Of a stretch of DNA of 54,085 bases, positions 1,468 through 42,754 are shown one piece after another (position 1 is the stretch's first letter; each line of letters opens with the position of its first letter). The notes under the pieces were generated by a model. It did not search any database and was not told the DNA's origin. It worked only from the letters and a program-made list of their open reading frames with translations. This DNA is from an uncultured bacterium (GTDB taxonomy: Bacteria > Patescibacteriota > Minisyncoccia > Phycocordibacterales > UBA1006): NCBI GenBank assembly GCA_937868685.1, contig CALMMZ010000232.1, positions 1 through 54,085 of the forward strand. The letters run 5' to 3'. Position numbers and translations under genes: made by a program.

Positions 1468-2136
1468 ATGACACATATGTTCAAACTAATTAGAGAAGAT
1501 GTAACAGACGTACAGGTACTTGTAGAAGAAGACAAGAGTACCGGAAAGAAAAATTACTTTATTGAAGGCATTTTCATGCAGGCAGAACGTCAGAATAAAA
1601 ATGGACGTGTTTATCCTATGCGTGTGCTTCAAAATGAAGTCAATAGATATAACAACGAATATGTCCTAAAGAACCGTGCATTCGGCGAATTGGGACACCC
1701 AGATACACCTTCCATTAACCTTGATCGTGTATCTCATATGATTACTAGTCTAAGACCTGAAGGAAACAATTTCATTGGTAAGTCTAAGGTTCTAGACACT
1801 CCAATGGGAAATATAGTTAAAGGATTACTCGACGGTGGTGCATGTTTAGGAGTTTCTACTAGAGGCGTAGGGTCTCTGAAGGCTCATAACGGCTACCAAT
1901 TGGTTCAAGATGATTTTAAGTTGGCCACAGCGGCTGACATTGTTGCAGACCCATCAGCACCAGATGCTTTCGTTAATGGCATCATGGAAAACTATGACTG
2001 GTGGTTAGATAGTGCAACAGGTGAATGGCATAAGAGATATATTGAAGAAGCAAAGAAAGAGATTAAAGCAGCTAGTAAATCTGATATTGAACGTGTAGCT
2101 ATTAATCTGTTTGAACGATATGTCTCAAAGTTCTAA
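1468..2136 (+). CDS. gp21: prohead core protease (T4 gp21 family)
   Basis: 222 aa. FGELGHPD (candidate catalytic His) and LGVSTRGVGS (candidate Ser) spaced about 53 aa apart, as in T4 gp21. Position is immediately before the scaffold and major capsid genes. Confidence 0.85.
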   Translation: MTHMFKLIREDVTDVQVLVEEDKSTGKKNYFIEGIFMQAERQNKNGRVYPMRVLQNEVNRYNNEYVLKNRAFGELGHPDTPSINLDRVSHMITSLRPEGNNFIGKSKVLDTPMGNIVKGLLDGGACLGVSTRGVGSLKAHNGYQLVQDDFKLATAADIVADPSAPDAFVNGIMENYDWWLDSATGEWHKRYIEEAKKEIKAASKSDIERVAINLFERYVSKF

Positions 2137-33320: not shown

Positions 33321-33884
33321 ATGAATAATGACGTTGGTATGATGCTCAAAGACCCCGAGTTATATACCGTTAAAGAAAAGATGACTGTGCAAATGTGGCC
33401 ACCTTCAATCGATAATGTTGCTGATAGCATGATGCCATATGTCAATAGAATGGCAGCACCCGTCAGAATTCTCATTGTGGGAACATTCAATGGTGAAGCA
33501 GCATATCGTTTCCTAGAATTGGATGAAAAGAAAAAGATAGGTGAAATAGTTTCCTTAAGTATCACAGACGACGAAATCCCATTTAACATAACTGCGGAAA
33601 GAAACCTGCAAGGAAAGGACGTTGTTCTCGGAACAAGTATTCCCGAAACAGAGTTATTTGACCTGGTATTTGTAAATTCGGAAACTAAGATTCCACTTGA
33701 CAGTCTTTATGAAAAATACTATAATAACGTCAAAGTAGGTGGTATCATCTGTGGAAATGATCACCACAAAGAAAAGGTGCGGGAATATTTGGCAGTTTTT
33801 ATGAGGGAAAAGAAATTAGGACTATCCCTGAATATTTCCAATAGAACAGTGTGGTTTTTATATAAGCACGCAAGGAGAGGTTAG
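33321..33884 (+). CDS. class I SAM-dependent methyltransferase-like protein
   Basis: ILIVGTFNGEAAYRFLE is glycine-rich and motif I-like. DLVFVNSE and GGIICGNDH. The ATG at 33321 follows GGAGA. Confidence 0.5.
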   Translation: MNNDVGMMLKDPELYTVKEKMTVQMWPPSIDNVADSMMPYVNRMAAPVRILIVGTFNGEAAYRFLELDEKKKIGEIVSLSITDDEIPFNITAERNLQGKDVVLGTSIPETELFDLVFVNSETKIPLDSLYEKYYNNVKVGGIICGNDHHKEKVREYLAVFMREKKLGLSLNISNRTVWFLYKHARRG

Positions 33885-33885
33885 T

Positions 33886-34236
33886 ATGGAATTACCATTG
33901 ACAACAATCAATACATATCCTGTGGAACTTTTCAAAACAGACAAGATCAAAACATTGGTTGACAATAAAAGGTGTTTTATTATATTGGGAGAGCCCAGCA
34001 GCTCAAATCTTATCGATGTGGATAAGATTGTAGGTGTTGTAAATGAACTGAAAGAAGACAAAGAAGATTTAATCGTTGATTTTAATGTATTGAAAACTCC
34101 AATGGGAACATTGTTCCAAGCTTTGTTTGACAACAATGCAAAAATAGCATTGCGTCCTTGTGGTGTTGGGCAAGTCGATCTTAATAACAACGTAACTGAA
34201 TATACACTCAACTATTTTTGGATTGATGCAGCATGA
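33886..34236 (+). CDS. truncated, catalytically inactive paralog of prohead protease gp21
   Basis: KRCFIILGEPSSSN...VLKTPMGTLFQALFDNNAKIALRPCGVGQ aligns with gp21 NRAFGELGHPDTPS...VLDTPMGNIVKGLLDGGACLGVSTRGVGS. His is replaced by Glu and Ser by Arg. Confidence 0.7.
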   Translation: MELPLTTINTYPVELFKTDKIKTLVDNKRCFIILGEPSSSNLIDVDKIVGVVNELKEDKEDLIVDFNVLKTPMGTLFQALFDNNAKIALRPCGVGQVDLNNNVTEYTLNYFWIDAA

Positions 34237-34268
34237 AAACAGCGTTGGTATTAGGAGCAGGTGGATAA
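34233..34268 (+). pseudogene. orphan 5' stub of an SDR (epimerase) gene: MKTALVLGAGG*
   Basis: The ATG overlaps the stop of the upstream ORF (ATGA). The 11 codons match the N-terminus of the functional gene at 34948 (KTALVCGAGG) and stop exactly within the GxxGxxG motif. Confidence 0.7.
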
Positions 34269-34289
34269 AGGTTTCAATTTTACTAAATA

Positions 34290-34309
34290 CTCCTGTGTAA
34301 CAACAGGAG
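34290..34309 (+). promoter_or_regulatory. hairpin sequestering the SD of the GIY-YIG gene
   Basis: CTCCTGT-gtaaca-ACAGGAG. The 3' arm contains the AGGAG SD, 7 nt before the ATG at 34316. Confidence 0.65.
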
Positions 34310-34315
34310 ATACAA

Positions 34316-34960
34316 ATGGAAAAAACCGGATTTATCTATATTTGGTATGATCGCAAACACAAAAAATACTATATCGGAAGTCATTTAGGGACAGAAGATG
34401 ATGGTTATGTTTGTTCATCTAGGTGGATGCGTCAATCTCACAAGCGCAGACCACAAGACTTTAAGAGAAGGATCCTTCAGAGAAATATCAGTAAAGAAGT
34501 GCTAAAAGAAGAAGAACATAAGTGGTTGAAGTTAATTAAAAATGATGAATTGGGTAAAAAATACTACAACTTAACCATTGCTTTGAACGGCAATGGTTGG
34601 GAAAAAGGAAAAGAACGATCTGAAAAAACAAAGAAGAAAGTTAGTGATGGTGTTAAACGTGCGTGGGAAGACGGTAGACTCAATAAAGAACTTTGTGGTA
34701 AAAAAGGAACTGTTCCCTGGAATAAAGGAAAAACTGGAATTTATTCTGAGGAAACTAAACAAAAACTTCGTGATGCAAGAAAGAAGCAAGTATTTTCTCT
34801 AGAAGCAATTGAAAAAAGAACATCTAAACTTCGGGGTAAGAAGCGAAGAAAAGAAGATATAGACAAGATGGTACAAACAAAAAAGGAACGCAGAGAAGCA
34901 GGACTTTATAAACCTGTGATTCCGTGGAACAAAGGATTGAAATTGAAATGTCAAAATTAA
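34316..34960 (+). CDS. GIY-YIG homing endonuclease with NUMOD3 repeats
   Basis: GFIYIWYDRKHKKYYIGSH gives GIY...YIG. PWNKGKTG and PWNKGLK are NUMOD3-like. Lys-rich. The 3' end overlaps the start of the epimerase gene by 13 nt. Confidence 0.9.
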   Translation: MEKTGFIYIWYDRKHKKYYIGSHLGTEDDGYVCSSRWMRQSHKRRPQDFKRRILQRNISKEVLKEEEHKWLKLIKNDELGKKYYNLTIALNGNGWEKGKERSEKTKKKVSDGVKRAWEDGRLNKELCGKKGTVPWNKGKTGIYSEETKQKLRDARKKQVFSLEAIEKRTSKLRGKKRRKEDIDKMVQTKKERREAGLYKPVIPWNKGLKLKCQN

Positions 34961-35973
34961 AGACCGCCCTGGTTTGTGGTGCTGGAGGATTTATAGGCAA
35001 CCACATGGTGAATAGGTTAGTCAAAGAAGGGTATTGGGTAAGAGCAGTAGACCTGAAGGAACCAGAATACTCAAAGACAAATGCAGATCATTTCATTATC
35101 AGAGATTTGCGTGATGCCAGAGAAGTAAGTGAGTTAATATCATATGCAGGTTGTCTAAGAAATCCTAACCAGTTATTTTCAAGAGAATTTGATAAGGGGT
35201 TTGATGAAATCTATCAATTTGCAGCAGATATGGGTGGTGCTGGATTTGTATTCACAAAAGAGCATGATGCAGAAATCATGCATAACTCTGCCACAATCAA
35301 TCTGAATGTCCTTGATGCATTGAGCAAAAGAAAAGATGGTCATAAGACTAAGATTTTCTATTCATCTTCTGCTTGCATCTATCCAGAATACAATCAATTG
35401 AATCCAGACAATCCAAAATGCGATGAAGCAAGTGCATATCCTGCAATGCCTGATAGTGAATATGGTTGGGAAAAACTCTTTAGTGAAAGACTATATGATG
35501 CATATCGTAGAAATTATCACCTTCAGACATATGTTGCTAGGTTTCATAATATCTATGGACCCTTGGGAACATGGCAAGGTGGTAGAGAAAAATCACCAGC
35601 AGCAATTTGCAGAAAAGTAATCAAGGCAACAGATCAAATTGAAGTATGGGGTGATGGTAAGCAAACTCGATCATTCCTGTATATCGATGATTGCATTGAT
35701 GCAGTTAGATTACTTATTAATTCCAATTTCAGAGGACCAGTAAATATTGGTTCAGAAGAAATGGTAACTATCAATGAATTGGTTAATACTGTCAAGTCCA
35801 TTGCAGGTAAGAATGATCTAAAGGTTGTTCATGTTGAAGGACCTCAGGGTGTCAGAGGAAGAAACTCTGACAACGAATTGATTGAAGCAAAGTTGGATTG
35901 GCATCCAAATGTATGTCTCTATGATGGTTTGAAAAGAACCTATAAGTGGATTGAGGAACAGGTTAATGGATAA
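34948..35973 (+). CDS. GDP-mannose 3,5-epimerase-like SDR
   Basis: GAGGFIGNH. SSSACIYPEYNQL, YGWEKL, RFHNIYGPLGTWQGGREKSPAAICRK, WGDGKQTRSF and GVRGRNSDNELI closely parallel plant and bacterial GME as I recall it. Confidence 0.8.
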   Translation: MSKLKTALVCGAGGFIGNHMVNRLVKEGYWVRAVDLKEPEYSKTNADHFIIRDLRDAREVSELISYAGCLRNPNQLFSREFDKGFDEIYQFAADMGGAGFVFTKEHDAEIMHNSATINLNVLDALSKRKDGHKTKIFYSSSACIYPEYNQLNPDNPKCDEASAYPAMPDSEYGWEKLFSERLYDAYRRNYHLQTYVARFHNIYGPLGTWQGGREKSPAAICRKVIKATDQIEVWGDGKQTRSFLYIDDCIDAVRLLINSNFRGPVNIGSEEMVTINELVNTVKSIAGKNDLKVVHVEGPQGVRGRNSDNELIEAKLDWHPNVCLYDGLKRTYKWIEEQVNG

Positions 35974-36178
35974 ACCAAATTTAGACACAATGTATAGTGC
36001 CTATTTGGATGGCACACTACAGGATTATTGTACCAAACATGATTTAGATTTTGTATTGGTAAATATGGTTATGAAACACTGGCCTACTGCATTGGCCCAT
36101 GGTATTATTCATGGTTGGCCAACAACCGAACAAGTTGAGGAGATTACAAAAAATGCATCCACCAAAAAAGAAGATTAA
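35966..36178 (+). CDS. hypothetical protein
   Basis: 70-aa ORF. The ATG is preceded by GAGGAA and overlaps the epimerase stop. Confidence 0.45.
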   Translation: MDKPNLDTMYSAYLDGTLQDYCTKHDLDFVLVNMVMKHWPTALAHGIIHGWPTTEQVEEITKNASTKKED

Positions 36179-36383
36179 ATGTGTGTTACATAATTGGTCT
36201 CCTTGGAGAAGAATACAGAATGGAGCAGGCACAGAAACTAGAATTTGCGAAGACTGCCACATAACAGAAACCAGACAATCTAAAATAAAGTATGATGCGG
36301 TTTACTTAGCAACCATGGAAGCAAGTAAAGAATTGGAAACATTGAGAGAAACTTTAGAGAAAAAAGATGAAACCATTACTTAA
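36153..36383 (+). CDS. hypothetical Cys/His-containing small protein
   Basis: 76 aa from the ATG behind GAGGAG. CVLHNW...ICEDCH is a possible zinc-ribbon-like pattern. Confidence 0.45.
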   Translation: MHPPKKKIKCVLHNWSPWRRIQNGAGTETRICEDCHITETRQSKIKYDAVYLATMEASKELETLRETLEKKDETIT

Positions 36384-37254
36384 ACTTGGGTTCACAGATA
36401 CATTTGGTGCCATTGAAGAATTCTTTACTGAAACACTTTCTACAGAATTTGAAATTGTAAGAGACGATGAAAATCCAGACTATCTCATTTTTGGAGATAG
36501 GAATTTTGGGGAGAACAATTTAAGGTATGACGAAACTAAGTGTATTAAGATTTTTTACACGGGAGAGAACCAGAGGCCTTACAATTATCGATGCCATTAC
36601 GCTATTAGCTTCGATCACGATGATAATGGCCGTAACTATAGGCTACCCCTTTATGTAATATATGATTGGGACAACAAGCGAAAGAAGGTAAACAATTCCA
36701 AGACCTTTGCTAGAACTTCCTACTCAATGAGCAAACATGAATTCGAGCAAAGAAAGTTTTGCTCATTTGTTGTCAAGAATGGTGGTTGTCAAAAGAGAAA
36801 TGACTTCTTCCATATGTTGAGTGAATATCAACCAGTCGATGCAGCAGGACCACTATTCAACAATGTTGGATACATACTAGAAGGTGGTGAAAGGGCAGTG
36901 CAGACAAAGTTGGAGTTTCTACCAAAATATCGGTTTAATCTCTGCTTTGAGAATTCATCCTATCCAGGTTACGCAACAGAAAAACTTTATGAAGCAATGA
37001 TGGGTAACACAATTCCTATCTATTGGGGAAGTCCAACTATTGAAATGGACTTCAACCCAGATGCATTCCTAAATTGGCATGACTATGGTAATGACGACGA
37101 TTTTATAGAAGCAATTAAAAGAGTAAATGAGGACTACTATCTCTACCAGGATATGTATTGTCAACCACTCTTTGGCAGAAAAAACAAATTTATGGACTTG
37201 AGTAAATTTGTAAGTTGGTTCATGCTAAACGTGTATAAGGGATCGGGATTATGA
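36367..37254 (+). CDS. GT10-family glycosyltransferase (alpha-1,3-fucosyltransferase-like)
   Basis: FCSFVVKNGGCQKRNDFF...PVDAAGPLFNN and RFNLCFENSSYPGYATEKLYEAMMGNTIPIYWG match the hallmark FucT motifs. Confidence 0.8.
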   Translation: MKPLLKLGFTDTFGAIEEFFTETLSTEFEIVRDDENPDYLIFGDRNFGENNLRYDETKCIKIFYTGENQRPYNYRCHYAISFDHDDNGRNYRLPLYVIYDWDNKRKKVNNSKTFARTSYSMSKHEFEQRKFCSFVVKNGGCQKRNDFFHMLSEYQPVDAAGPLFNNVGYILEGGERAVQTKLEFLPKYRFNLCFENSSYPGYATEKLYEAMMGNTIPIYWGSPTIEMDFNPDAFLNWHDYGNDDDFIEAIKRVNEDYYLYQDMYCQPLFGRKNKFMDLSKFVSWFMLNVYKGSGL

Positions 37255-37451
37255 GCACATTTATTTGGGTGCTTGTCACATGGACAGCATTTAGTTTCAT
37301 ATATGCTTTCTTCATAGCAGACAGAATTCCCGACGGTTTATTTTGGTTCATACTTGATTTTATCATTGCTGCACCAGCAATAATAATTATGATAGCATGT
37401 GTCGTATTATACGAAACTATAGATAACTTTTTTAATAGGAGAAAAAAATGA
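37251..37451 (+). CDS. small two-TM membrane protein
   Basis: 66 aa with two hydrophobic helices and a basic C-terminus (NRRKK). ATGA overlaps on both sides. Confidence 0.6.
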   Translation: MSTFIWVLVTWTAFSFIYAFFIADRIPDGLFWFILDFIIAAPAIIIMIACVVLYETIDNFFNRRKK

Positions 37452-37642
37452 AGTATCTAGTTATGGCAATTGCAACATTTGGTTTGGTTGCATGTAAGGA
37501 AGACAGTGGTGTTCACTTGGGAACATTCAAGGCAGACTGTGCAGCAAAACAAGGAACACTTGCTGAAGTTGCCGGTTCGCCAAACGAATATACCTGCACA
37601 CTACCAGACGGTTCAGTATTGAAGACAACTGAAAAGAAGTGA
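37448..37642 (+). CDS. small lipoprotein
   Basis: MKYLVMAIATFGLVAC is a signal peptide with a lipobox. 64 aa. Confidence 0.65.
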   Translation: MKYLVMAIATFGLVACKEDSGVHLGTFKADCAAKQGTLAEVAGSPNEYTCTLPDGSVLKTTEKK

Positions 37643-37643
37643 C

Positions 37644-38375
37644 ATGAATAAAGCATTGATCATTACACCTACTGGGTGTCCTTATTTTCTCGATGAAGAA
37701 TTTGATAAGGATAATCATTGGGTATTCAGAAAACCTGGAAGATCGTTTGAAACTTGTGCTGTGATCTTCAACGATTTTGAACCAGAACCTGGAACATATG
37801 ATATGGTCATTCACCATAAAGGTAGGAAATGGTCAATGCTTCCAGAAATTGCAAACAAAGTGAAATGGGAAAATTATGACTACATTGCTTATTTTGATGA
37901 TGATTATTGTACTGATATTCAGTCAATCGAGACGGCGTTAAGTATTGCAAGAAGACATGATATGGGATACTTTCAACAGAGCTTGACATCCTGGACGGTT
38001 TACCCTATACTAGAGCACAATCCCGATTTTGTATTTACGGAAACTAATTTTACGGAACTTGGAGTACCTTTCTTCCGGAATGATATATTCCGAAAGGTAC
38101 TCCGTTTCTTTACAGATTATAAACCAGGAAATGCGGAATGGGGAATGGATAAGGTGTTATGTTTCTATTTGCAGATGAACGCCCATATTATCCATGCAAG
38201 TAAAATCAAGCATATGAGACGTGAAAGTTCCTATGATAAAACAGAAGGTTTCCGAGAAATGGATTACCTGATGCGGGAATGGTTCCCAAAGTATATGAAA
38301 GACAAATTCAACCTAGATTATCAGTATGATGATCGACAGGTTGAATTTGCAGGTCTAAAGAAGGTTTCATCATGA
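37644..38375 (+). CDS. hypothetical protein, DUF707-like (possible glycosyltransferase)
   Basis: 243 aa. YDYIAYFDDDY acidic motif. The overall pattern recalls DUF707. Weak assignment. Confidence 0.4.
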   Translation: MNKALIITPTGCPYFLDEEFDKDNHWVFRKPGRSFETCAVIFNDFEPEPGTYDMVIHHKGRKWSMLPEIANKVKWENYDYIAYFDDDYCTDIQSIETALSIARRHDMGYFQQSLTSWTVYPILEHNPDFVFTETNFTELGVPFFRNDIFRKVLRFFTDYKPGNAEWGMDKVLCFYLQMNAHIIHASKIKHMRRESSYDKTEGFREMDYLMREWFPKYMKDKFNLDYQYDDRQVEFAGLKKVSS

Positions 38376-38632
38376 AATTAGAAGATATTACAAGAGTTAG
38401 TATTTTGGCACGATTACTAAACGAAGCAAAAATGCAGTTGGATACATTAAAGTCAAAAAAATTCAAAGAGACTATAATTGTAACAATGTATGAAGATGGT
38501 GCTAGAGATTTACCACCAGTCACCTTCAACATTCGTTTTGATGAAGCTTTACATAAATCATTGGTCAGATCAATGGAAGAAAGAATTGAAAGGTTGGAGA
38601 ATGACATAATTGATTGTGGAGTTGAACTATGA
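38372..38632 (+). CDS. hypothetical protein
   Basis: 86-aa ORF with overlapping start and stop codons shared with its neighbours. Confidence 0.5.
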   Translation: MKLEDITRVSILARLLNEAKMQLDTLKSKKFKETIIVTMYEDGARDLPPVTFNIRFDEALHKSLVRSMEERIERLENDIIDCGVEL

Positions 38633-38856
38633 CGCTATATTATCAGTGCAGACTTGAACAAAAGACAGATGAAGGTATCATCCACCAGGTTGCGTGGATT
38701 GAGGAAAAAGGCGCAAAGCACGGACTTAGAGTCCAATTGATTGGTGAGGAAGGTCTTTGGGAAGTGAAAACAGTATCTCAACCGGGTATGAATAAGGTTG
38801 ATATTCACAATCACAAGACAGCAAAGGGTCTTAAGTCAATCCATTTTTCGAGGTAA
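38629..38856 (+). CDS. hypothetical protein
   Basis: 75-aa ORF with an ATGA overlap with the upstream ORF. Confidence 0.5.
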   Translation: MTLYYQCRLEQKTDEGIIHQVAWIEEKGAKHGLRVQLIGEEGLWEVKTVSQPGMNKVDIHNHKTAKGLKSIHFSR

Positions 38857-38859
38857 ATT

Positions 38860-39225
38860 ATGACAGTTGCAGCATTTTTATATGATAACTACTATTGTTG
38901 GAGTCCCAAAAAGTCTTTCGCTGGTGTTTTTGCTGATGTGGACGAAGCAAAAGAATCACTTAGAGGTGGTAGATATGAAAAGCAAAATCTAGAGACTTTA
39001 AATTTGGATACATATGAGTTTTTGAGGTTTGTATGGAATCCTATTTATGAGAGGAAAGAAGAAGACGGAAAAGAATTCTTCAAACTGAGTTACAAAAACG
39101 GCGGTAATGCACCTGAACCAGAATGGATAGAAGCTGAATATTGGCCACCTAGTGCCAAAGATGGAAGATATAGTACAGAAACACAAGCAAAATATGATGC
39201 TGGATTTTGGAGTGGAAATGACTAA
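38860..39225 (+). CDS. hypothetical protein
   Basis: 121-aa ORF. Confidence 0.55.
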   Translation: MTVAAFLYDNYYCWSPKKSFAGVFADVDEAKESLRGGRYEKQNLETLNLDTYEFLRFVWNPIYERKEEDGKEFFKLSYKNGGNAPEPEWIEAEYWPPSAKDGRYSTETQAKYDAGFWSGND

Positions 39226-39432
39226 ACGAGTATTATTGACGGGTGGAGCAGGTGGAAAAATCCAGATTTTAGAAAAAATCAAATCGAAAAGAAAAAGTTA
39301 ATGTGGTCTACAGGAGAATTTATGGGTAATAAAGGAAAATCGTGGTTTACTGACGGAACAAAAAATATAATGTTAGCATCAAATGATGTAATTCCGAAAG
39401 GATTTTATAAAGGGAGAGTATTTCATGGTTAA
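39218..39432 (+). pseudogene. orphan SDR 5' stub (MTKRVLLTGGAGG...) plus decayed homing-endonuclease remnant
   Basis: A 27-codon ORF begins by overlapping the stop of the upstream ORF and copies the dehydratase N-terminus. The following 43-codon ORF ends NKGKSWFTDGTKNIML...IPKGFYKGR, a pattern typical of HEG C-terminal DNA-binding tails, and overlaps the dehydratase ATG. Confidence 0.55.
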
Positions 39433-40465
39433 GCGCTGTCTCCTGACAGGTGGAGCTGGGTTTATAGGCCACCACATTATTGATTTGTTCCTAGAAAAGA
39501 CCGATTGGGAGATTGTATCTCTTGATCGGTTGGACTATTCTGGAAACCTAAACAGGTTACACAGTGTTCTAGAGAAGTATCCTAAAGAAACACAACAAAG
39601 ACTTAAGGTGGTATGGCATGATCTAAAGGCGCCCATATCAGACCTAACCAAGAATTTCATTGGTGATCCAAATATTATCCTGCACCTTGCAGCATCCAGT
39701 CATGTTGATAGGTCTATCACTCACCCAATGGAATTTGTGATGGATAATACTGTGGGAACAGTAAACGTTCTAGATTTTGCAAGAGGTTTAAAGAACCTTG
39801 AACGTATGATCTATTTCAGCACAGATGAAATCTTTGGTATTGCACCTCCTGGTGTATCGTACAAGGAACGTGACAGATATAACTCAACCAACCCCTATTC
39901 TGCTTCCAAAGCAGCAGGTGAGGAATTCTGTGTTGCCTATGAAAATACCTATAAACTTCCAATCTTCATTACTCATTGCATGAATGTCTTTGGTGAACGT
40001 CAACACCCAGAGAAGTTCATTCCATTGTGTATTAGGAAGATTAGAGACTCAGAAAAGATTTTCATCCATAGTGATTCAACACGTACAATCCCTGGGTCAA
40101 GATTCTATATACATGCAAAGGATGTGGCAGATGCAATTCTGTTTATATTAACTCTATCACCTGAAAACTTGAAAACAATTTACACACCAGATTGGGGTGG
40201 TGCAAAATGCCCCAAGTTCAATATTGTTGGTAAGGAAGAAATCAATAACCTTGAATTGGTAAAGATGATCGCAAATGCACAAGGTAGAACACCTATCTGT
40301 GAAATGGTTGACTTCCATTCATCCAGACCTGGTCATGATTTGAGGTATGCACTTGATGGTGGGTATATGAAAAGTCTGGGTTGGGAACCAAGGTTTAGTC
40401 TTCAGGAAAGAATCAGTGAAGTGACTGAATGGTCACTTGCAAACAAAGAATGGATTGAAATATGA
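39425..40465 (+). CDS. rfbB: dTDP-glucose 4,6-dehydratase
   Basis: GGAGFIGHH. YSASKAAGE (YxxxK). HCMNVFGERQHPEKFIP. RPGHDLRYALD is characteristic of RfbB/RmlB. Confidence 0.85.
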   Translation: MVKRCLLTGGAGFIGHHIIDLFLEKTDWEIVSLDRLDYSGNLNRLHSVLEKYPKETQQRLKVVWHDLKAPISDLTKNFIGDPNIILHLAASSHVDRSITHPMEFVMDNTVGTVNVLDFARGLKNLERMIYFSTDEIFGIAPPGVSYKERDRYNSTNPYSASKAAGEEFCVAYENTYKLPIFITHCMNVFGERQHPEKFIPLCIRKIRDSEKIFIHSDSTRTIPGSRFYIHAKDVADAILFILTLSPENLKTIYTPDWGGAKCPKFNIVGKEEINNLELVKMIANAQGRTPICEMVDFHSSRPGHDLRYALDGGYMKSLGWEPRFSLQERISEVTEWSLANKEWIEI

Positions 40466-41199
40466 CCAATGATATGGAAACAATTGAGATAAACAAAAAA
40501 TATGGATCGGGAGCATATCCTTCCGATATTCTCAGACATGAATTTGATAACCTAACAAAAAGTTCTGATAAATGGGAACATTATTTTGGTATATACACTC
40601 ATTTCTACCACCAATTGAAAAGTCACCAAAGATGTGATATAAAGTCAGGGCAAGTTTTGGTTGAGGTAGGTGTTCAACAAGGTGGTTCATTGGAGTTATG
40701 GGGTAATGTTTGGCCTGGTCAAGTAATTGGTATTGACGTTGATCCAGAATGTCTAAAACTCAAGTATGATAATCCAAGTATCAGTGTTGAATTAGGCGAC
40801 CAGGGTTCACCACATTTCTGGGATGACTTCCTATCAAGGCATCCAAGGATTGATTTTTTCATTGACGATGGTGGACATAATATGGACCAACAGATTATCA
40901 CCTTTGAGAAAGTATTCCCAAAACTATCAGTTGGAGGCATATACATTTGTGAAGATTGCCATACTTCCTACATGCAATACAATGGTGGTGGATTGAATGT
41001 AAAGGGATCATTTATTTCCTATGCAAAATCCTACATTGATATTATCCATGCAGGATGGTGGGAAGAAATGAATGCAGACTTGGAACAAAGGAAGAAAATT
41101 GGGAAAGACTTGACTTCTGTCCATTTTTATGATAGTATAGTCGTGTTTGAAAAGTTTGGAAAAGCGGAAATGAAGCGAGTGACACCCAAAGGGAAATAA
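40462..41199 (+). CDS. CmcI-family (cephalosporin hydroxylase-like) methyltransferase
   Basis: VEVGVQQGGSLELWG, FIDDGGHNMDQQ and GGIYICED fit the CmcI / sugar O-methyltransferase family. Confidence 0.65.
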   Translation: MTNDMETIEINKKYGSGAYPSDILRHEFDNLTKSSDKWEHYFGIYTHFYHQLKSHQRCDIKSGQVLVEVGVQQGGSLELWGNVWPGQVIGIDVDPECLKLKYDNPSISVELGDQGSPHFWDDFLSRHPRIDFFIDDGGHNMDQQIITFEKVFPKLSVGGIYICEDCHTSYMQYNGGGLNVKGSFISYAKSYIDIIHAGWWEEMNADLEQRKKIGKDLTSVHFYDSIVVFEKFGKAEMKRVTPKGK

Positions 41200-41463
41200 A
41201 TGGCAAAGACCTGGTATTTTGCAGAATGTAAAAAATGCATGGAAGTTTGCCGAGTAATGGTAAATAATCCAAAATGCACCGCCGCTTATTTGGGAGATTA
41301 TAATAGACAAATAAGCAAGTGGTTGATTAAGCATTATGGTTGCGAACTGACACTAGGATGGCGTGATGACCACCTAGATGCATTGTGGCCACAAGGATAT
41401 GAAGTTAAAGATTTGTGGTTTGAGAAAACTGATGAGCAATTGGAAGATGATGAAGATGTTTGA
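41200..41463 (+). CDS. hypothetical Cys-rich protein with acidic tail
   Basis: 87-aa ORF directly abutting the upstream stop. Confidence 0.5.
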   Translation: MAKTWYFAECKKCMEVCRVMVNNPKCTAAYLGDYNRQISKWLIKHYGCELTLGWRDDHLDALWPQGYEVKDLWFEKTDEQLEDDEDV

Positions 41464-42754
41464 GAATGGACCAGTAGAAGAATTAAAGACGTGTTTGGCA
41501 TGTGGTGGGAATTGTTTGACTCCACTACTAGACCTAGGAAAGCAACCACCAGCAAATTCACTTAAGAAAACTGCAATTCAGGTACAGGAACAATTTCCCC
41601 TTGCAATTAATCGTTGCTTGGATTGTTACCATGTCCAGTTGACGCATATTGTCAATCCTGAAATTCTGTATAAAGATTACCCATATGTAAGTGGTACTTC
41701 AAAGACTATGATGGAATACTTCGAGTGGTTTTCTAAATTTGCTGACGAATATTATAAGTCACTTAATGACAGAACACCAAAGGTAATTGTAGAGATTGGT
41801 TGCAATGATGGTTCACAATTAGACCAATTCAATAAATTAAACGGAAAATTTGTGACAATTGGTGTTGATCCTGCTGAAAATATTATAAAGAGTGCTAGAA
41901 AAAAGTCTGATCAACACATTTTGTATTGTGGATTTTTTGATAATGAATTTGTCGAATGGATGTACGATGACATTGAATTTGGCTATAACAAACCAGATAT
42001 TGTAGTAGCACAAAATGTGTTTGCTCATAATCCAGACCCATTTACATTTTTAAACAATGTAAAAAATATGATGGCAGCTGATGGTTTGTTATTCATCCAA
42101 ACTTCACAGGCAAATATGATTTTGAATGGTGAGTTTGATACAATTTACCATGAGCACATTTCATTCTACAATATTAACTCGATGCAAGAGCTGTGCAAAA
42201 GAGCAGGGATGGAACTGATTGATGTTATCAAAACTCCTTTGCACGGAACTAGTTACATTTTTGTTATTGGTCAAACCCCACCTGTGACCTCAACAAAATA
42301 CAGAATCGAAAATCTGATTGCGATGGAAAAGGCAGTAGGACTCTATAGTCCAAAGACTTACTATGAATACAAAAAGAAGTGTGAAGCATTGCCTCAAAAA
42401 CTGACTGATGAAATTACTCAATATTGGAGAAGTGATGTTGGTAAGATGGTAGTTGGTTATGGTGCCGCAGCAAAGGGCATGACACTAATTAATTACACTG
42501 ATATTGGTAAATACATGAGTTGCATTGTTGATGATAACCCATTGAAGCAAGGTAAGTTTGCTCCTGGTTCAAAGCTTCCGATTATCAATTCTGATTTTCT
42601 AAAGACAACAGAGGACTCAATTGTATTCATTCCTCTTGCTTGGAATTTCTTTGATGAAATCGTATCGAAGATCAAATCTATCAGAGACAATCCAAATGAT
42701 GTTTTTGTCAGATATTTCCCAAAGGTTGAAAGTTTTAGGATAGACAATGATTAA
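41456..42754 (+). CDS. NDP-hexose C-methyltransferase (TylCIII-like)
   Basis: N-terminal zinc-ribbon CLACGG...C..CYH. SAM motif EIGCNDGSQL. C-terminal VGYGAAAKGMTLINY is typical of sugar C-methyltransferases. The ATG at 41456 overlaps the upstream stop. Confidence 0.75.
   Translation: MFENGPVEELKTCLACGGNCLTPLLDLGKQPPANSLKKTAIQVQEQFPLAINRCLDCYHVQLTHIVNPEILYKDYPYVSGTSKTMMEYFEWFSKFADEYYKSLNDRTPKVIVEIGCNDGSQLDQFNKLNGKFVTIGVDPAENIIKSARKKSDQHILYCGFFDNEFVEWMYDDIEFGYNKPDIVVAQNVFAHNPDPFTFLNNVKNMMAADGLLFIQTSQANMILNGEFDTIYHEHISFYNINSMQELCKRAGMELIDVIKTPLHGTSYIFVIGQTPPVTSTKYRIENLIAMEKAVGLYSPKTYYEYKKKCEALPQKLTDEITQYWRSDVGKMVVGYGAAAKGMTLINYTDIGKYMSCIVDDNPLKQGKFAPGSKLPIINSDFLKTTEDSIVFIPLAWNFFDEIVSKIKSIRDNPNDVFVRYFPKVESFRIDND

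Follow-up and report, generated by a model that had tools for sequence, protein, structure and literature searches.

Positions 39218-39480 of the 54,085-nt contig CALMMZ010000232.1 (GenBank assembly GCA_937868685.1; the whole contig is hereafter called the window) very probably hold a dead homing-endonuclease cassette: an endonuclease gene that inserted inside a gene of the short-chain dehydrogenase/reductase (SDR) superfamily, brought a replacement 5′ end for that gene, and then lost its nuclease half through one deletion. We refer to this site, which lies at the start of a phage gene of dTDP-glucose 4,6-dehydratase-like type (SDR2 type), as locus 2. A second site in the window (locus 1), in an SDR gene of another type (SDR1), carries HEG1, an intact paralogue of the deleted endonuclease. 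Coordinates of all features are collected in the table below.

The evidence that carries this reading is an intact progenitor, found by tracing homologues of P0083, an endonuclease of the HEG1 family, to their source contigs. Two Logan contigs, L284 and L285, encode in order a stub of an SDR gene (MTKRVLLTGGAG, closed by a stop), a 53-nt leader, a 230-aa endonuclease (P0156; L284 1052-1744), and the same SDR gene as at locus 2, beginning MVKRCLLTGGAGFIGHH. The window frame at 39253-39429 encodes exactly the final 59 residues of P0156. By blastn, L284 1-873 aligns to window 37987-38859 (98.7% identity), L284 963-998 to the stub at 39217-39252 (34/36 positions), and L284 1565-4244 to 39253-41932 (99.81%), and L284 999-1564 (566 nt) is absent from the window. 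Because the window equals L284 minus these 566 nt, locus 2 is a single-deletion derivative, and the gradual erosion proposed in the initial annotation of this DNA must be abandoned. The deletion, with its junction at 39252/39253, removed the leader and endonuclease codons 1-171, including the GIY-YIG-like catalytic domain. A 98.9% identical relative, L162, has the identical junction, and the deletion is therefore older than the split between the window and L162. With an intact homologue at the same site in relatives and the catalytic part gone, the gene at locus 2 is a homing endonuclease pseudogene. Four substitutions separate its remnant in the window from that in L162, three of them non-synonymous; these are too few for a test of relaxed selection.

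Both boundaries of locus 2 are as first read from the sequence: the stop of an upstream 121-aa open reading frame (ORF; up121) overlaps the ATG of the stub, and a 43-codon ORF overlaps the ATG of the SDR gene. This ORF, found in L162 and L285 and missing from L284, marks the SDR gene's original 5′ boundary. The ATG at 39218 opens the frame MTKRVLLTGGAGGKIQILEKIKSKRKS, beginning MTKRVLLTGGAGG, in which reading after the deletion continues to a stop at 39299-39301. The first 12 residues of this stub are identical (12/12) to the N terminus of an uninterrupted homologue, L004, and its ATG has the same overlap position as the gene start in L003, a relative with an empty site. The stub is evidently not a chance sequence. 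The endonuclease remnant follows it in a frame that is open back to 39226 (68 codons in all) and contains the module WFTDGTKNIMLASNDVIPKGFYKGR at 39343-39417. The putative ribosome-binding site of the SDR gene lies within the endonuclease 3′ end, as it also does in intact cassettes (L272, L276, L280, and L284), and L276 has the same MVKRCL start beside an intact endonuclease. Since the 3′ piece of the remnant carries the SDR ribosome-binding site and start, it probably persists for that reason. The codons for FYKGR (TTTTATAAAGGGAGAG, 39403-39418) hold a TATAAA string as well as GGGAGAG, and the endonuclease 3′ end may also provide expression signals for the host gene.

The gene restored in this way is an SDR gene with an N-terminal Rossmann GxxGxxG motif. 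Its product matches Pfam GDP_Man_Dehyd (E 8.5e-49), Epimerase (3e-47), and RmlD_sub_bind (5e-12) over 39425-40462, and phrog_540; dTDP-glucose 4,6-dehydratase is its predicted type of activity. The SDR1-type gene, which starts at 34948, reaches a Pfam E of 2e-37 over 34948-35970.

Features of the two cassette loci in the window (positions are those of the whole contig; SDR1 and SDR2 denote the two SDR gene types)
Feature	Coordinates	Strand	Remarks
Stub 1, MKTALVLGAGG and stop, SDR1-type gene	34233..34268	+	resembles the uninterrupted 5′ end in L162, ATGAAAACAGCTTGTGTTTTGGGAGCAGGTGGA before TTC
Cassette leader: stop codon, T4-late-promoter-like CTAAATA (34283-34289), 7-bp hairpin (34290-34296 / 34303-34309)	34266..34315	+	
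HEG1, intact GIY-YIG-like homing endonuclease, 214 aa, paralogue of the deleted one	34316..34960	+	phrog_314 (9.4e-14), NUMOD3
SDR1 replacement 5′ end MSKLKTALVCGAGG and co-converted TTTATAGGC	34948..34998	+	comparison with L162
up121, upstream 121-aa ORF	38860..39225	+	TAA at 39223-39225 overlaps stub ATG at 39218
Stub 2, orphaned original 5′ end of SDR2-type gene, MTKRVLLTGGAG; last codon incomplete	39218..39252	+	
Homing endonuclease gene remnant, last 59 codons and stop	39253..39432	+	protein identical to P0156 C terminus
43-codon ATG ORF within the remnant	39301-39432	+	ends in WFTDGTKNIMLASNDVIPKGFYKGRVFHG and stop; overlaps SDR ATG at 39425
GGGAGAG, likely SDR ribosome-binding site inside endonuclease 3′ end	39412..39418	+	read from sequence
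Endonuclease-linked replacement SDR 5′ end, MVKRCLLTGGAG, then TTTATAGGC	39425..39460	+	
Intact SDR2-type gene, NAD-dependent epimerase/dehydratase, dTDP-glucose 4,6-dehydratase-like, 346 aa	39425..40465	+	

Homology searches with the remnant lead to the same conclusion. An exhaustive phmmer search of the 60-aa remnant frame against 1.84 billion proteins gave 331 matches at E<=1e-3, 31 of them at E<=1e-10. Among these is P0083 (236 aa), which ends in GNKGRSWFTDGKTNLMLFPKDEVPFGFYKGRVFHD and is 49% identical to HEG1 (E 6e-58); its last 53 residues are 58% identical to the remnant (E 2e-17). In 50,697 phage genomes, tblastn found 276 records (best E 5e-4; T4-type SegE, 0.02), and the features under the 40 matches listed are mostly annotated homing endonucleases. 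A module W/YxNGxKN...IPxGFxKGR is common to the remnant and the tblastn matches and is repeated within SegE; in the form WxxNG...PxGFxKG it recurs, often in tandem, in the 331 proteins. The similarity to endonucleases predicted for the 43-codon ORF is thus real, as is its descent from an endonuclease C terminus, that of P0156. The motif itself is less specific than first supposed, being usually an internal or repeated module and not strictly C-terminal. Other searches returned little. Pfam and PHROGs gave no match to the 43-aa ORF at E<=1, a silence that is uninformative and not negative with so short a query. When the remnant was aligned directly with HEG1, no meaningful similarity emerged, the tails of the two endonucleases being different; a word-indexed protein search with a 58-aa frame recovered only one 98%-identical 43-aa copy; an IMG/VR scan with the remnant found nothing; and INPHARED phages yielded only SDR genes at 65%-80% identity and nothing closely related to either locus.

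These data also dispose of a simpler account of the locus, in which replication slippage locally duplicated the gene start in tandem and the 43-aa ORF arose by chance. Short direct repeats of the 5′ coding segment do flank the region, as that account would have it. Relatives, however, have a full endonuclease gene whose 3′ end is the same sequence as the intervening DNA, which refutes the idea; the intervening sequence has 331 significant homologues, and the two copies differ at most wobble positions, unlike a recent duplication. We give tandem duplication practically no credence.

A different question is whether the remnant still does something. The 43-aa ORF, or the 27-aa stub fusion, could be expressed as a small DNA-binding protein that shields the target site from related endonucleases or represses transcription and is selectively retained. 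The remnant frame is open for 68 codons with an ATG at 39301, the window and L162, though diverged, both retain the deletion, all four remnant differences between these lie upstream of the WFTDG...GFYKGR module, and that module is a widespread endonuclease DNA-binding repeat. We nevertheless regard retention as a mini-protein as improbable. Downstream, the DNA still matches the intact progenitor at 99.8% identity, leaving too little time for selection on the remnant to show, and three of the four substitutions are non-synonymous. There is no clear ribosome-binding site ahead of 39301, the remnant is constrained anyway at its 3′ end by the ribosome-binding site and start of the SDR gene, and no homologous stand-alone family of small proteins was found beyond the single 98%-identical copy.

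The initial annotation had tied the two loci together through a 12-mer in both stubs and a 17-mer in both functional genes. Both pairs are present and unique, with GGAGCAGGTGGA occurring in the window only at 34254-34265 and 39245-39256 (shuffled sequences predict no occurrence) and TTTATAGGCNACCACAT only at 34990-35006 and 39461-39477. Their interpretation as breakpoints holds only in part. At stub 2, only GGAGCAGG is SDR-derived and TGGA is part of the Trp-Lys codons of the endonuclease, brought next to the stub by the deletion, so the identity with the Gly-Ala-Gly-Gly codons of stub 1 is partly coincidental. Within the 17-mer, the third base of GGC varies among relatives of at least 99% identity (TTTATCGGT in L284; TTTATAGGT in L285 and L162) and marks no fixed breakpoint. 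Judged from the aligned sequences, the true common feature of both loci is the insertion position between the Gly and Phe codons.

The claim that one endonuclease lineage entered two SDR genes fared better. P0156 and HEG1 are 90% identical over their N-terminal 100 residues, and at the DNA level L284 997-1375, which spans the leader and the beginning of the endonuclease gene, matches window 34263-34639 at 83.9% identity. The locus 1 leader, whose equivalent was deleted at locus 2, is 84% identical to that of L284, and its hairpin sequesters the GGAG ribosome-binding site of HEG1 (predicted fold -11.4 kcal/mol, z -2.2).

Relatives with empty sites exist for both SDR types. For SDR2, the contig L003 has a 66%-identical up121 homologue followed directly by the uninterrupted SDR gene, MTKRVLLTGACGFIGHH. 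For SDR1, L162 has a 191-aa ORF followed directly by ATGAAAACAGCTTGTGTTTTGGGAGCAGGTGGA and TTCATTGGAAACCAC. In comparison with L162, window 33884-34971 replaces 18 nt at locus 1; beyond it lie 8 substitutions within 34976-34998 and then identity until 35712. On account of these substitutions, TTTATAGGC at locus 1 falls within an endonuclease-linked tract. The replaced segment includes a 116-aa ORF (33886-34236) that stands between the 191-aa ORF and stub 1 and is missing from the otherwise near-identical L162. Every other fetched locus lacks it as well, the homologues of the 191-aa ORF abutting the SDR1-type gene directly; a paralogue, 30% identical, lies at window 1675-1890.

The replacement 5′ ends differ from those of uninterrupted genes at a recognizable position. 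Eight positions before the Phe, Cys (Cys5) occurs in 6/7 endonuclease-linked and 2/2 remnant-linked alleles (8/9 together), versus 0/63 distinct endonuclease-free SDR2 5′ ends, which have Val, Ile, Leu, Phe, or Met. The stubs carry Val at this position; residue 5 of stub 2 is of the same kind (Val/Leu/Ile) as in alleles without an endonuclease. With Val in the stubs and Cys in the linked alleles, the stub is of the resident type and the replacement 5′ end belongs to a distinct lineage that moves with the endonuclease. A second marker, ATA for Ile, is found in 6/9 linked alleles versus 5/63 endonuclease-free ones and is not universal, L284 having ATC.

The order stub, endonuclease, gene, for which the initial annotation had suggested a survey, recurs in eight distinct cassettes in three SDR types: SDR1 (window locus 1 and L290), SDR2 (L284/285, L276-279, L280-283, L288-289, and L045-047), and a third type encoding a 264-aa RmlD-like SDR (L286-287). 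In all eight, the end of the stub falls on or beside the Gly codon before the Phe of GxxGxxG-FIG, 9-14 codons into the coding sequence, in keeping with the suggestion that entry was through the shared motif-coding sequence. The triplet after the stub is an in-frame stop in 6/8 cassettes, and the left end of the cassette is conserved (TARARRTTTC...CTAAATAC). At the right end, the endonuclease stop overlaps the new SDR start, or abuts it in L288. All eight leaders are predicted to fold into a hairpin whose 3′ arm contains a GGAG ribosome-binding site, except that in L288 it is the start codon that is paired; from locus to locus the arms change in sequence and the pairing is kept. A (C/A)TAAATA box precedes the hairpin at window 34283-34315 and L284 1018-1051, and also in L280, L276, L290, L286, L288, and L046. 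We take this TAAATA to resemble the T4 late-promoter box. In T4, endonuclease genes are restricted to expression from late transcripts by such a box together with a hairpin that occludes the ribosome-binding site, and the kept pairing suggests temporal control of endonuclease translation here.

The placement of these cassettes raises the possibility that stub and gene act as exons of one product, the DNA between them being spliced out of the RNA as an intron or skipped by the ribosome in translational bypassing: each stub ends exactly where downstream homology would resume (G/FIG), and phage endonuclease genes often reside in group I introns. We judge this very unlikely. Because the downstream gene comes with a ribosome-binding site, an ATG, and a full N terminus of its own, a joined product would contain 12 residues twice; locus 2 has a spacer of less than 210 nt, and most intact cassettes have an in-frame stop directly after the stub. 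A search of 33800-40600 against Rfam gave no intron RNA at E<=1. A group I intron with an encoded endonuclease was rejected on the same grounds, with no Rfam intron and a downstream gene that is complete alone.

Stubs appear to be confined to one branch of the endonuclease family. Among 79 loci of the wider family, they occur only next to SDR genes, the other members being ordinary intergenic genes that sit between structural genes; suspected stubs at L126 and L089 proved to be artefacts of non-ATG gene starts. Among roughly 100 SDR1-type loci in IMG/VR, no stub was found apart from that of the window. On this survey, only the SDR-associated clade has the intragenic design. One cassette within that clade is stubless (L272-L275, around L272 2000-2010), with P0083 starting 4 nt after an upstream 81-aa gene. 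Contigs L280-L283, which share some JGI samples and the same neighbours with L272-L275, have a 67%-identical endonuclease with a stub.

Comparison of the endonucleases suggests that their two halves have different histories. HEG1 and P0156, so similar in their first 100 residues, share 23% identity over the last 90, and P0083 and P0157 (third SDR type, L286) have nuclease domains that are 86% identical and tails that are 21% identical. The HEG1 tail is closest to that of P0176, also in an SDR1-type gene (L290; 71% identity in the N-domain, 46% in the tail), whereas the P0156 tail is closest to those of P0083 (49%) and P0153 (46%), both in SDR2-type genes. Tails thus track the target gene and nuclease domains do not, which points to modular shuffling or gene conversion between cassettes.

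Assignment of these proteins to the GIY-YIG endonucleases draws on motifs, domains, and a structure model. The motifs GFIYIW...YYIG, R45, E67, and YYN85 are invariant in 34 members of the family, and 25/34 contain NUMOD3 (best E 1.9e-34), indicating a modular C-terminal DNA-binding region. In an AlphaFold2 model of HEG1, residues 1-80 have pLDDT values of 87-95, and the top three Protein Data Bank (PDB) matches are to the I-TevI catalytic domain (1LN0, 1MK0; probability 0.97-0.99, TM 0.52-0.56, 80-90 columns). The N-terminal domain of HEG1 is accordingly modeled with the GIY-YIG alpha/beta fold.

Together, these observations fit the following scenario. In the ancestral cassette, still intact in L284/L285, a free-standing gene for a GIY-YIG-type endonuclease lies between the Gly and Phe codons of GxxGxxG-FIG, in the order stub-closing stop, late-promoter-like TAAATA, hairpin hiding the ribosome-binding site, endonuclease ORF, and new ribosome-binding site, ATG, and 12 recoded codons. 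The recoded codons, overlapping the endonuclease 3′ end, restore a complete SDR frame. The enzyme is presumed to cut endonuclease-free SDR alleles in or near the motif-coding DNA, and repair would copy the cassette with the stub and the downstream gene body as homology arms. With both arms inside the target gene, homing would be independent of whatever variable genes lie upstream. Occupied alleles would resist cutting by virtue of their recoded 5′ end with its Cys5, and shuffling of nuclease domain and DNA-binding tail among cassettes could retarget the lineage between SDR paralogues. At locus 2, the single deletion spared the stub, the last 59 codons of the endonuclease, and the replacement 5′ end. 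We propose, with slightly more doubt than confidence, that the cassette is self-contained in this sense, the stub acting as left homology arm, the recoded start as both right arm and immunity allele, and tail swapping moving it between SDR paralogues of one phage or of different phages. A free-standing endonuclease could then home into the Rossmann-motif DNA, universally conserved, of any SDR gene irrespective of its neighbours. If true, this would be a third route to exploit conserved coding sequence, beside introns or inteins and intergenic placement.

Several points weigh against parts of this interpretation. We infer the homing, homology-arm, and resistance steps from sequence comparison; as regards site cleavage and super-Mendelian inheritance, what is observed is a patchy distribution and a co-conversion tract. 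The stub arm, at about 35 nt, is short for homologous repair, and a search for microhomology at the deletion junction found none. Owing to the extra 116-aa ORF upstream of the stub relative to L162, the event at locus 1 was no simple target-site insertion. The association with Cys5 is not phylogenetically independent, as the 5′ end travels with the cassette. Regarding the family assignment, Pfam PF01541 is detected in only 6/34 members and weakly (best E 0.0017), SegE_GIY-YIG is detected in 2/34, a sequence-based PDB profile search found nothing, and the Foldseek E-values of the HEG1 model are 0.04-0.09.

Among known systems, the cassettes most resemble the Seg endonucleases of T4-like phages (SegE, SegF, and SegG; "intronless homing"). 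Like these, the SDR-linked enzymes are small nucleases, probably of GIY-YIG type, with NUMOD3 linkers, SegE also has the W/YxNGxxN...PxGFxKG module, and in both cases a free-standing gene beside its presumed target is patchy among relatives and has co-converted flanking DNA. Seg genes are known to sit between genes, as do other members of the present family. Unlike them, the SDR cassette lies inside coding sequence and carries in a second, recoded copy of the target gene's 5′ end, the first being left behind as a stub. Like endonucleases of introns and inteins and the T4 mobA/gene 60 bypass, it targets a conserved coding motif, spares the host gene, and has both arms in the target gene; unlike these, it comes with no splicing RNA that we could find, no intein, and no bypass, the gene being restored at the DNA level by the replacement 5′ end.

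A parallel is provided by fungal mitochondria. In Allomyces, an endonuclease gene is accompanied by a partial C-terminal duplication of atp6. A C-terminal cob duplicate is found downstream of cob with degenerated LAGLIDADG ORFs between them, and atp6 is likewise followed by a C-terminal duplication (PMC6279837). There, too, a complete gene copy and an orphaned fragment flank endonuclease ORFs. The fungal cases concern the 3′ end of genes in organelles, whereas the present cassettes supply a 5′ end in phages, draw the ribosome-binding site and start from within the endonuclease ORF, and occupy three paralogous gene types. In the phage literature we found no report of a duplicated target-gene 5′ end beside an endonuclease gene, which is weak evidence given that most subscription papers were outside the search.

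Homing endonucleases are classically described as passing through invasion, fixation, degeneration, and loss. States corresponding to this life cycle coexist here: empty (L003; SDR1 of L162), intact (L284/285, L276, L280, and others), degenerate (the window; SDR2 of L162), and stubless (L272). Locus 2 is, on sequence grounds, a clear example of the degenerate stage in which the single inactivating event can be identified. The presence of empty, intact, stubless, and deleted states in near-identical genomes makes homing, immunity, and decay directly testable.

The SDR cassettes may be of interest in other respects. Homing endonucleases usually spare their host gene by way of introns, inteins, or intergenic spacers; this phage endonuclease clade sits inside coding sequence and repairs the damage with a spare gene start that it carries. 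No motif in this very large enzyme superfamily is better conserved than the one targeted, and the apparent tail swaps, which follow different paralogues, offer natural material for the study or engineering of endonuclease retargeting. Tiny "SDR-like" ORFs and ORFs of 40-60 aa before sugar-nucleotide genes in cyanophage islands become readable as cassette scars. The cassettes also coincide with variable gene content in glycosylation islands, with genes gained and lost just upstream of stubs.

Such variation is evident around locus 2. Among relatives of at least 98% identity, the DNA directly upstream of stub 2 differs: L284 874-962 lacks the 121-aa ORF, and in L285 a gene for a 371-aa N6_N4 DNA methyltransferase (1295-2410) is inserted between this ORF and the stub. 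The window and L162 differ in two patches, 36573-36720 and 37083-37161, where mismatches number 17 and 19 per 250 nt and the background is close to zero, which indicates mosaic recombination in the glycosylation island. A weak match to the Rfam freshwater-2 RNA motif at window 37365-37450 (+ strand; 29.1 bits versus a gathering threshold of 49.9, E 0.21) is probably due to chance. Finally, two genes downstream of the SDR2 cassette in L276 (5418-5876; also in L277 and L278), between a 224-aa gene and a methyltransferase gene, lies a 152-aa HNH_3 gene that is probably a second homing endonuclease.

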